Of a DNA stretch of 61,296 nt, positions 16,774 through 17,940 are shown piece after piece. The stretch comes from Candidatus Thorarchaeota archaeon (GTDB taxonomy: Archaea > Asgardarchaeota > Thorarchaeia > Thorarchaeales > Thorarchaeaceae). The notes beneath the pieces are model-generated. The model was not told the DNA's origin and searched no databases. It saw only the letters and a list, made by a program, of their open reading frames with translations. Location of the stretch: contig JAGSHN010000028.1 of assembly GCA_029855935.1 (NCBI GenBank), forward strand, positions 1-61,296, given 5' to 3'. Position 1 is the stretch's first letter. The number at the start of each line of letters is the position of its first letter. The position numbers and the translations under genes are program-made.

Positions 16774-17940
16774 ATGCCACTTGGTCTTGCCGTACTGAAA
16801 TGGGACGACGAACTCGGGCCTGTGGTCACTGCCAAGACGCCGAAGGACCTCGTCATGGGGCTTGATCCCACTACCTCTATGCGTGTCTATGGTATCGCCA
16901 CCCTCGGAGAGACTGAGGAGTCTCAGAAGCCTGGCTTTAGCGCCCTCACCTTTGACGAGTTCAAGCTTGCGGTCTACTATGGTGGCCTGAATATGCATCT
17001 GAAGGGTCTGCCCTCGATGGTCTTCCTTGTGCTATCACCCGACGAGGACCCAGAGGTCTACAAGGACGCCTTGCCAGAGATTGCAACGCAGATATTTCTC
17101 AATGCCGAGGGCGACCGGTATAAGAAGATGGTACCAAAGCTGTACGGCCAGCTTGCTCGGTACACGCAGATGACGCCTGAACAGCGTCAGGCATCAGTAT
17201 TGAACGACCCCGTACGTCGATCAATATTGAAGACCCTGACGATGAATGGAACGGTAGAGTCTGACGATCTTGAACAGCTCATCTTTGACGAGGTCGGAAA
17301 GAAGATTGACGTGGAGATTGTGCTGCGCCCGCTGGTCAAGATGGGCATAATCGCCACAGGCTGGATTGAGGGCCTTGCCTCCGAGGTCGTCTATCTCACC
17401 CGTGCGATATTCGTTCTACGGATGATTCCTAGGGACACGGTCAGGCTTGCACATAGTGGCAAGCTGCCGCGAGAGGTTGTCGCTCAGTATCTGGACTCGC
17501 TCAAGAAGTATCACCGGAACTATGTGGCACGTCTGAATAGAGATCTTGGTGAGGCTCTGTGGAAGGAGGCCGCAGACCTGTCAAAGCATATGCTCGACTT
17601 CGACTCGTACGATCTCATTCAGGCACTCCGCGATGGGCCGAGGCTCACTGAGGAGCTGCCAGTTCTCATTGACATGGACAAGGCCAAGCTGAAGTCAACA
17701 ATCAAGCGCCTAGAGAAGGCAAACATCGTTATGACGGTGAATGACGAGTCCGGTCGGCAGCACGTTCTGCTGAAGTGCGATCCACAGGTCGCTACCGTAT
17801 ATCCAGAGTGGCTCATCGAGAGAACGGTAGATCTGTACAACTCTGAGGAGATTCCCAGCAGACAGGCGATTCATTACTTACAGATACTCAAGGCGTGGCA
17901 CCCGAGTGTGGCCACAACAGCAATGGCGGAGGTGGAGTGA
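16774..17940 (+). CDS. uDENN/longin-like N-terminal domain with C-terminal winged-helix domains
   Basis: N-terminal GLAVLKWDDELGPVVTAKTP matches the uDENN/longin h-h-x-x-F/W-D-x-x-x-G-P pattern. wHTH-like segments: DPVRRSILKTL..LRPLVKMGII and LIQALRDGP..IKRLEKANIV. AAGGAG SD at 16758. Confidence 0.6.
   Translation: MPLGLAVLKWDDELGPVVTAKTPKDLVMGLDPTTSMRVYGIATLGETEESQKPGFSALTFDEFKLAVYYGGLNMHLKGLPSMVFLVLSPDEDPEVYKDALPEIATQIFLNAEGDRYKKMVPKLYGQLARYTQMTPEQRQASVLNDPVRRSILKTLTMNGTVESDDLEQLIFDEVGKKIDVEIVLRPLVKMGIIATGWIEGLASEVVYLTRAIFVLRMIPRDTVRLAHSGKLPREVVAQYLDSLKKYHRNYVARLNRDLGEALWKEAADLSKHMLDFDSYDLIQALRDGPRLTEELPVLIDMDKAKLKSTIKRLEKANIVMTVNDESGRQHVLLKCDPQVATVYPEWLIERTVDLYNSEEIPSRQAIHYLQILKAWHPSVATTAMAEVE

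Follow-up and report, generated by a model that had tools for sequence, protein, structure and literature searches.

A thorarchaeal longin and winged-helix protein, probably an adaptor between giant surface proteins and Arf-like GTPases

The window analysed here is the whole of a 61,296-nucleotide (nt) stretch of DNA from a Candidatus Thorarchaeota archaeon (GenBank assembly GCA_029855935.1, contig JAGSHN010000028.1, positions 1 to 61,296 of the forward strand), and the subject of this work is one of its genes, which encodes a protein of 388 amino acids (aa) built of an N-terminal longin domain and two winged helices. The protein is called the adaptor below, after the role that we consider probable for it, and its gene is followed on the same strand by those of a giant surface protein and of an Arf-like GTPase:

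16774..17940, + strand: adaptor gene, 388 aa plus a TGA stop (17938-17940), encoding longin, winged helix, helical linker, winged helix and C-terminal helices
16760..16763, + strand: GGAG, a ribosome-binding-like site 10 nt 5' of the ATG at 16774 (direct sequence reading)
17928..17943, + strand: adaptor-giant junction, with GGAGGTGGAG in the last codons of the adaptor, TGA, then the TTG start of the giant, zero spacer
17941..25005, + strand: giant single-pass surface protein, 2354 aa, with a signal peptide, an Ig-like/CarboxypepD_reg ectodomain, a transmembrane helix at about 2090-2108 and a 246-aa cytoplasmic tail
25111..25992, + strand: Arf-like GTPase with a putative longin-type N-domain, 293 aa (Pfam Arf, 5e-12)

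The open reading frame (ORF) given for the adaptor in a preliminary description of this DNA proved to be a real gene, with an ATG, a GGAG site, a TGA stop and homologs sharing its N-terminus. All of the 191 close homologs (191/191) begin MP.GLAVLKWDDELGP, and owing to this common start and to the GGAG at 16760-16763, translation from a longer TTG-initiated frame, starting at 16738, is improbable. The best matches were thorarchaeal proteins, 66-82% identical over the full length; identity among the thorarchaeal orthologs is about 90% in residues 1-215 and 336-376, with residues 216-335 variable. Over the family the median isoelectric point (pI) is 5.2 and the mean net charge is -8 for the longin, -1.1 for the first winged helix and -0.4 for the second, and the gene product is probably a soluble, acidic cytoplasmic protein belonging to an Asgard-wide family. 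As to the GTPase, its true start is M33 of the ORF opening at 25015, its orthologs are 293 aa long, and about 118 residues precede the Arf-like G domain.

The adaptor was modelled with AlphaFold2 from an alignment of 62 family sequences (mean predicted local distance difference test, pLDDT, 92.2; predicted template modelling score, pTM, 0.85), and the following parts were delimited:

16774..17169, + strand: longin domain, residues 1-132 (AlphaFold2 secondary structure and VIA-align)
17170..17427, + strand: winged helix 1, residues 133-218, with strong conservation, among others of E136, Q137 and R216
17428..17595, + strand: two long linker helices, residues 219-274, variable in sequence
17596..17802, + strand: winged helix 2, ArsR/SmtB-like, residues 275-343
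17803..17937, + strand: three C-terminal helices, residues 346-387 helical, with a conserved P344-E-W/Y-L motif, L369 and L372

Strands (E) and helices (H) of the first domain follow as E4-11, hairpin, E15-22, H32-43, E54-59, E64-69, E79-87, H99-109 and H116-128, which is the beta-beta-alpha-beta-beta-beta-alpha(-alpha) order of the longin superfamily within its usual 120-130 residues or so, and the domain aligned with Z scores of 9-12 to many solved longins. This order, together with the presence of NPRL2/Npr2 among the top matches in both Foldseek and VIA-align, bore out the N-terminal longin fold claimed in the preliminary description; the two C-terminal winged helices claimed there were likewise found in the model, at residues 133-218 and 275-343. 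With the whole adaptor as query, Foldseek against the PDB placed GATOR1 chains at the top, led by 9o5d_D (E 1.4e-4) and followed by 8fw5_C, 9h4q_T and 9o5a_H. When the model was compared by VIA-align with 48,161 representatives, the longin aligned to NPRL2 (8fw5_B) with a Z of 11.5 and a root mean square deviation (rmsd) of 2.8 Å over 122 residues, level with a lokiarchaeal roadblock-longin protein (8yqg, Z 11.2-12.1), and the alignment to another NPRL2 chain (9o5d_D, Z 11.8) covered 179 residues (model 1-324, chain 6-238), remaining co-linear past the longin. Somewhat lower values were obtained for the yeast SEA complex (8adl_S, Z 10.8) and yeast Npr2/3 (10.8-10.9), then for VAMP7, Lst4, FLCN, Mon1-Ccz1, adaptin sigma, TRAPP and C9orf72-SMCR8 (8.5-9.9, with Lst4/FLCN up to 10.5 and C9orf72-SMCR8, 7o2w_A, at 8.7). 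In the ESM Atlas three Asgard clusters of the adaptor's own family came first (template modelling score, TM, 0.68-0.87), and eukaryotic NPR2 (PF06218) next, with 207 residues over 1-337. At the level of sequence, the adaptor had no match to Pfam NPR2 (PF06218), NPR3 (PF03666) or folliculin at E ≤ 0.1, none of the 62 family members matched NPR2 or NPR3 at E ≤ 0.01, remote homology remaining possible, and eight longin domains of the family matched nothing in Pfam even at E ≤ 10. On the model, then, the adaptor longin is nearest to the longins of GTPase-activating proteins (GAPs), by a margin that is not wide, the architecture of the whole chain is NPRL2-like, and the winged helices are generic.

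The giant surface protein starts where the adaptor ends, an abutment also found in the orthologous loci L005 and L006, and translational coupling of the two genes is likely. Directly after its transmembrane helix lies a short motif that is the hallmark of giants adjoining or fused to adaptors:

24280..24345, + strand: juxtamembrane tail motif RIPYQIKQINKAVKAIESGKRA

The 246-aa tail begins RRWRIPYQIKQINKAVKAIESGKR, and its end is acidic and disordered. The consensus of the motif is [RK]-I-P-x-[FQ]-[VI]-K-[KQ]-[IV]-x4-K-x-I-x2-[GK]-K, after which come lineage-specific conserved segments, and the ectodomains are barely alignable (22% identity between the giant of the window and P0188, a fusion described below). 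A pattern made of the transmembrane helix plus the motif occurs in 24 giants next to or fused with adaptors in the surveyed loci, a circular count, since the pattern was derived from those same proteins; among the ORFs of at least 80 aa in this genome it occurs exactly once, in the giant of the window. A profile of the tail also picked out giants that are not linked to an adaptor, in genomes with the adaptor next to the GTPase alone (four in G038, three in G006 and one in G007). Three other giants of the same genome, of 2581, 2909 and 2897 aa (C4:45694-53439 (-), C4:53436-62165 (-) and C16:131853-140546 (-)), carry after their last transmembrane helix a variant tail, [VL]-S-V-P-x2-[IV]-R-x-I...R-[KR]-G-x-V-P, with a weak profile match (E 2e-7 to 2e-5), and may serve as clients for the two paralogous adaptors without a giant beside them. 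A 969-aa ORF of the window (46882-49791, +) was without the tail motif in the pattern scan.

The association with giants is also found outside Thorarchaeota. An exhaustive HMMER search of 1.84 billion cluster representatives returned 180 adaptor-family clusters at E ≤ 1e-3, most of them proteins of 350-390 aa matching end-to-end, and in some members the module makes up the final ~360 residues of a protein of 1300-2550 aa; in P0188 (2548 aa) the ectodomain, transmembrane helix, tail and module are joined in one chain, and family f9 has tandem arrays of ORFs of about 2660 aa, each ending in an adaptor module. We then considered about 20 kb around 47 full-length modules, at 44 loci from at least 15 families, which were selected, with their contexts still unseen, on profile score and on spread over families; as related genomes are included, the figures are counts and not independent events. 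Fusion to a co-oriented ORF of at least 800 aa, or a distance of at most 100 nt from one, was found for 26 of the 47 modules, and for 3 more such an ORF lay within 770 nt. A full-length longin-Arf GTPase was present within 800 nt of 14/47 modules, often at 0-36 nt, and three more had within 350 nt a member of the GTPase family with a different N-terminus, so that 40/47 had a giant or a GTPase partner. The most frequent partner is the giant membrane protein, which the preliminary description had missed. Gene order varies: adaptor, giant and GTPase follow in that order in Thorarchaeota, the giant precedes the adaptor or is fused with it in f9 and f24, and in f7, f8 and f19 the adaptor precedes the GTPase with no adjoining giant. 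In f12 the adaptors are longer (525-580 aa, with a C-terminal extension) and adjoin both a longin-Arf GTPase and a second longin ORF of about 305-314 aa (L066:8943-10685 (-); L067:9419-10996 (+)). Family f13 has, directly upstream of the full-length adaptor, a paralog of about 150-168 aa that consists of a longin alone, with an E of 1e-27 to the longin of the adaptor (L063:10770-11216 (-); G012:C1:182303-182677); it is a candidate partner in a longin-longin heterodimer.

A coupling of this kind also suggests that the adaptor could be a biogenesis or sorting factor for the giants, which together with the Arf-like GTPase targets, inserts, clusters or turns over the giant, by analogy with the longin SRX of SR-alpha, the receptor of the signal recognition particle (SRP), and its Arf-like partner SR-beta, or with Arf and the longin adaptor subunits that read cargo tails. 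The translational coupling or fusion with giants agrees with such a factor, as do the resemblance of the conserved tail motif to a sorting signal, the matches to adaptin-sigma, zeta-COP and AP-5 sigma longins (Z 8.5-9.1), weak Pfam SRPRB matches on GTPase paralogs, and the many complex surface proteins of Loki cells, which have no S-layer (PMC9834061). However, the cluster has no coat, SRP or translocon genes and the adaptin/SRX longin match is weaker than the NPRL2/FLCN-type one, so that we regard this alternative as quite improbable, bearing in mind that it overlaps with our preferred explanation and does not exclude it.

The link to the GTPase was assessed in the genome of the window itself (assembly of 2.97 Mb, 97% complete), which encodes three full-length adaptors, paralogs with 20-26% mutual identity, and, among 32 G-domain matches, four full-length members of the longin-Arf GTPase family. 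Each of the three adaptors has such a GTPase close by: 7.1 kb downstream for the C19 adaptor, overlapping by 4 nt on C11 (adaptor 16748-17950, GTPase 17947-18831; L082:4749-6832 = C11:16748-18831), and 1.5 kb downstream on C21 (adaptor 235313-236470, GTPase 238001-239821, 606 aa; L081:2314-6822 = C21:235313-239821). In each adaptor-paired GTPase Pfam places an Arf-type G domain at about 120-270. Given four GTPase genes in 2.97 Mb, the chance of one lying within 7.5 kb is about 0.02 per adaptor, and the 3/3 pairing is therefore very unlikely to be due to chance. A pair of the C21 type was also met in another family's genome (L070), and there the nearest neighbours of the adaptor and of the GTPase agree. 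The C21 GTPase bears a C-terminal extension of about 320 aa that has no Pfam match. The fourth GTPase of the family (649 aa, L083:2351-4300) has no adaptor nearby.

Both families were then followed by profile search through 301 genomes of the phylum. The adaptor family was present in 220 of them, being universal in the family of the window (76/76), in f9 (68/68, with at least 6 copies each), f12 and f24, and nearly absent from f5, f14, f16, f22 and f27. The GTPase family (E ≤ 1e-40) was present in 217/301, and its by-family tallies are near-identical to those of the adaptor: both are universal in f1 (76/76), f3, f7, f9 (68/68), f12 (19/19), f13, f17, f19, f21 and f24, both are missing or almost missing from f5, f14, f22, f25, f26, f27 and f29, and small discordances occur in f4, f10, f16 and f18. 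This shared range is consistent with one shared system, or with one or a few gains or losses.

How the adaptor might act on the GTPase depends on two short segments of its longin:

16801..16821, + strand: W10-D11-D12-E13-L14-G15-P16 hairpin between strands 1 and 2 (W-D-x3-G-P)
16996..17010, + strand: H75-L76-K77-G78-L79, a Thorarchaeota-specific insert between strands 4 and 5, at the presumed site of NPRL2 Arg78 and FLCN Arg164

In NPRL2 and FLCN these two arginines stand just before strand 5, in the strand 4-5 loop. The first-hairpin motif had been pointed out in the preliminary description, and W10-D11-x3-G15-P16 does sit between strands 1 and 2. Among the 62 diverse members W10 is kept in 58, D11 in 52, G15 in 60 and P16 in 16, and judging from the alignment the conservation of W10/D11/G15 is far above chance; P23 (62/62), Y68, G71, L87 and E91 are the other near-invariant longin positions. 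The W-D-x3-G-P spacing equals that of C9orf72 W33-D34...G38-P39 (numbering of PMC12290439). In the ARF1-C9orf72-SMCR8 structure the GTPase rests on both longin domains, the double change W33G/D34K almost abolishes GAP activity, and the arginine finger of the complex is SMCR8 Arg147 (PMC8213707). A 2025 study has connected Asgard longins bearing the GP motif with the GAP longins of eukaryotes, and reported the G(P) motif as specific to longins of the GAP type (PMC12290439).

The motif, together with the catalytic NPRL2 chain among the best structural matches and the tight adjacency of GTPase genes, would suit an NPRL2-type GAP subunit that switches the Arf-like GTPase off by means of a catalytic basic finger, either K77/R77 in Thorarchaeota or an arginine at hairpin position 13. 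Indeed K77-G78 precedes strand 5 in the thorarchaeal orthologs, with an arginine at 77 in three of 22, and position 13 is an arginine in 27/62 members. But residue 77 may be K, R or N among those orthologs (N in one), the loop is confined to Thorarchaeota and gapped in 46/62 members, no longin position holds a conserved arginine or lysine across the 62 family members, the proline of the GP motif is present in 16/62 only, and the conserved W-D fits the non-catalytic C9orf72 side and not the finger-bearing SMCR8. The check for a conserved arginine finger was thus negative, and for this reason the adaptor is not filed as an NPRL2-type catalytic GAP, a role that we find distinctly improbable; a non-catalytic longin partner (like NPRL3/C9orf72), an exchange platform or an effector is likelier. 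The preliminary description had proposed the adaptor as the regulator of the GTPase two genes on: a functional link with that GTPase is strongly upheld by the neighbourhood, the paralogous pairs and the phyletic range, and what found no support was the NPRL2-type GAP, for want of a conserved arginine finger.

What is established here is the fold, the conserved hairpin motif, the fused and adjoining genes, the pairing of adaptor and GTPase paralogs, the phyletic range common to both families and the motif in the tail; with these in hand we consider it probable that the adaptor is an adaptor or regulatory platform between the tail of the giant surface protein and a dedicated Arf-like GTPase. One side of the adaptor would engage the basic juxtamembrane helix of the giants, with which it would be made, apparently by translational coupling or, in Loki-type lineages, as a fusion to their C-terminus. 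The acidic character of the family (pI 5.2, longin -8) agrees with a basic tail helix as ligand, and less well with DNA. The other side would engage the GTPase, which has its own putative N-terminal longin-type domain, and the W-D-x3-G face of the adaptor longin would be the most likely contact, by analogy with C9orf72-SMCR8-ARF1, in which the GTPase lies on a longin pair. We infer the binding to either partner, the surfaces involved and the way in which the nucleotide cycle would be affected, if at all. More tentatively, the three proteins could possibly constitute a prokaryotic receptor/cargo-adaptor-Arf module, in which the adaptor reads the tail motif and offers the W-D-x3-G face to the GTPase.

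It should be considered that several results weigh against this interpretation. Neither partner was nearby in 7 of the 47 surveyed modules. Although the thorarchaeal orthologs keep the order of the window (adaptor, giant, GTPase, small proteins, coiled-coil protein), these loci alone are weak evidence because unrelated metabolic genes upstream are kept too. The agreement in phyletic range and the correlation between adaptor and GTPase distances (Mantel r 0.87, reached in 0/5000 permutations) are both confounded by shared ancestry, and the latter was given little weight because the species phylogeny alone would produce such an r. Profile comparison of the GTPase N-domain with the longin of the adaptor revealed no similarity (hhalign probability 0.4%), and the NPRL2 longin match is not set clear of other longins, with Z declining from 11.5 to about 9 (SNARE, adaptin-sigma, TRAPP). 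Finally, the C-terminal half, also modelled alone (pLDDT 94.9), is no less similar to DNA-binding regulators of the ArsR/SmtB/TrmB kind than to any winged helix that binds proteins, rows 5-7 of the ESM Atlas search were bacterial ArsR/SmtB clusters of about 210 aa covering 130-388 with a TM of 0.6, and the adaptor orthologs in databases, mostly unnamed, include a few labelled ArsR, HxlR or MarR regulators.

For the C-terminal half, alignments of winged helix 2 gave Z scores of 9.0-9.4 and rmsd values of 2.3-3.4 Å (BigR 3pqj 9.4, CzrA 9.2, SmtB 9.1), and the archaeal tandem winged-helix factors PF0095 (2qlz) and Phr (2p4w) were matched by Foldseek (E 1.8e-4), as was ESCRT-II. The C-terminal domain of NPRL2/3 was absent among the top rows of the fold search with this half alone, and only a shared architecture, not homology, is therefore claimed beyond the longin. 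The NPRL2/GATOR1-like character proposed in the preliminary description stands for the longin followed by tandem winged helices and for the top-tier NPRL2 matches; it was not supported by the C-terminal half, whose best matches, taken alone, were of the ArsR/SmtB/TrmB type, or by Pfam, where NPR2 and NPR3 gave no match. Pfam HTH_20 matched winged helix 2 of the adaptor weakly (residues 279-321, 21.4 bits against a cut-off of 27), and at E ≤ 0.01 it was found in 8 and HTH_5 in 7 of the 62 members. Sequence searches against the PDB returned weak MarR/ArsR matches to winged helix 2 only, and the profile gave spurious TALE-repeat matches. An ESCRT-II-like identity (3cuq matches) was rejected as the primary one, there being no ESCRT context and the match being that of a generic tandem winged helix.

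These structural matches, along with weak Pfam HTH_20, HTH_5 and TrmB matches in some members and the regulator labels of some orthologs, are what a DNA-binding transcription regulator would be expected to give, in which tandem ArsR/TrmB-type winged helices sit on an operator and the longin acts as a sensor; such a regulator might be sequestered at the membrane by the tail of the giant, or the fused forms might be membrane-tethered one-component regulators. We hold this to be unlikely, as the putative recognition helices are not basic (the charges and pI given above), the helix region of winged helix 2 is the least conserved part among orthologs that are ~90% identical in longin and winged helix 1, ArsR proteins do not typically recur as C-terminal fusions to membrane giants or pair tightly with a GTPase, and eukaryotic longin-winged-helix proteins and ESCRT-II employ winged helices for protein contacts.

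Asgard archaea have dozens of eukaryote-like small GTPases and longins, almost none with a known partner or function. A longin family here gains a GTPase partner family, a membrane client with a short docking motif, and residue-level predictions (W10/D11 as the GTPase face, no arginine finger). If the predicted binding is true, it would offer an experimental handle on how an S-layer-free surface is coupled to GTPase switches in relatives of the eukaryotic ancestor, and would bear on the origin of the GATOR1/FLCN/C9orf72 longin regulators. If the three-protein module is real, the family would be an archaeal relative of the longin GAP complexes (GATOR1, FLCN-FNIP, C9orf72-SMCR8) or of cargo adaptors that depend on Arf, and its connection to the cell surface would predate endomembranes. 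Should the adaptor be an ArsR-like regulator instead, the case would be a caution against inferring eukaryote-like function from longin folds.

The remaining genes around the adaptor, giant and GTPase are the following:

13165-16472, + strand: pyruvate-carboxyltransferase-like (HMGL-like plus PYC_OADA), biotin carrier and thiolase-like genes, syntenic in other Thorarchaeota and functionally unrelated
25994-26557, + strand: ORF of 187 aa, no family
26583-26954, + strand: ORF of 123 aa, no family
26955-28385, + strand: coiled-coil protein of 476 aa
28466-28807, + strand: ORF of 113 aa

The first three genes after the GTPase are in the same order in the thorarchaeal clusters L005 and L006. With regard to the GTPase N-domain, a close paralogy with the adaptor longin was dropped after the family-against-family hhalign comparison, and an ESM Atlas feature search with this domain returned no usable match.

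Among known systems, ArsR/SmtB and TrmB-type proteins (BigR 3pqj, PF0095 2qlz, Phr 2p4w) share with the adaptor the fold of residues ~133-343, and the adaptor differs from them in its N-terminal longin, its acidic or neutral helices, its fusions to membrane giants and its pairing with a GTPase, and is not known to have a metal site or an operator. NPRL2 and NPRL3 (Npr2 and Npr3 in yeast) are the longin subunits of GATOR1/SEACIT, the GAP for RagA/Gtr1. They resemble the adaptor in size (~380-400 aa), in the order of an N-terminal longin and tandem winged helices, in a hairpin of the form hydrophobic-[FW]-[HD]-x3-G-P and in the linkage to a small GTPase; Npr2/Npr3 have been described as a longin with two or three winged helix-turn-helix domains (PMC3521125, PMC3747258). 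In contrast to them, the adaptor has no conserved arginine finger (NPRL2 Arg78) and no Pfam NPR2/NPR3 match, its C-terminal half alone is nearer to ArsR/TrmB-type winged helices, its neighbouring GTPase is Arf-like with a putative longin-type N-domain and not a Rag heterodimer, it has no known DEPDC5-like partner, and it is tied to giant surface proteins, a coupling absent from GATOR1.

C9orf72, which acts with SMCR8 and WDR41 as a longin-DENN GAP complex for ARF, has its ARF1-contact residues in a W-D-x3-G(P) spacing identical to that of the adaptor, whose own contact with a GTPase is predicted; neither protein has an arginine finger of its own, and the client is an Arf-family GTPase, again by prediction in the case of the adaptor. 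The two differ in what follows the longin, winged helices in the adaptor and DENN plus d-DENN in C9orf72, the structural match is weaker (7o2w_A, Z 8.7), and a finger-bearing partner like SMCR8 was not identified for the adaptor here. In the literature that could be searched, no description was found of the coupling to giants, of the motif in their tail or of longin-Arf GTPases paired with adaptors; already published are the Asgard NPRL2-like longin proteins themselves. These proteins, an asCOG class, were reported in most thorarchaeal and a few lokiarchaeal metagenome-assembled genomes, with NPRL2-like longins fused to signalling domains (Liu et al., bioRxiv 10.1101/2020.10.19.343400), and the 'NPRL2-like longin domain' is a category of eukaryotic signature proteins listed for 'Ca. 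L. ossiferum', whose cells have complex surface proteins and no S-layer (PMC9834061). The genome of the window likewise encodes a 313-aa protein (C6:76082-77023; L084:1083-2024, -) in which an N-terminal longin (E 8e-8 with the adaptor profile) is fused to TackOD1, a two-component-type output domain, matching the longin-signalling fusions of Liu et al. It is to this 'NPRL2-like longin' class of eukaryotic signature proteins that the adaptor family probably belongs.

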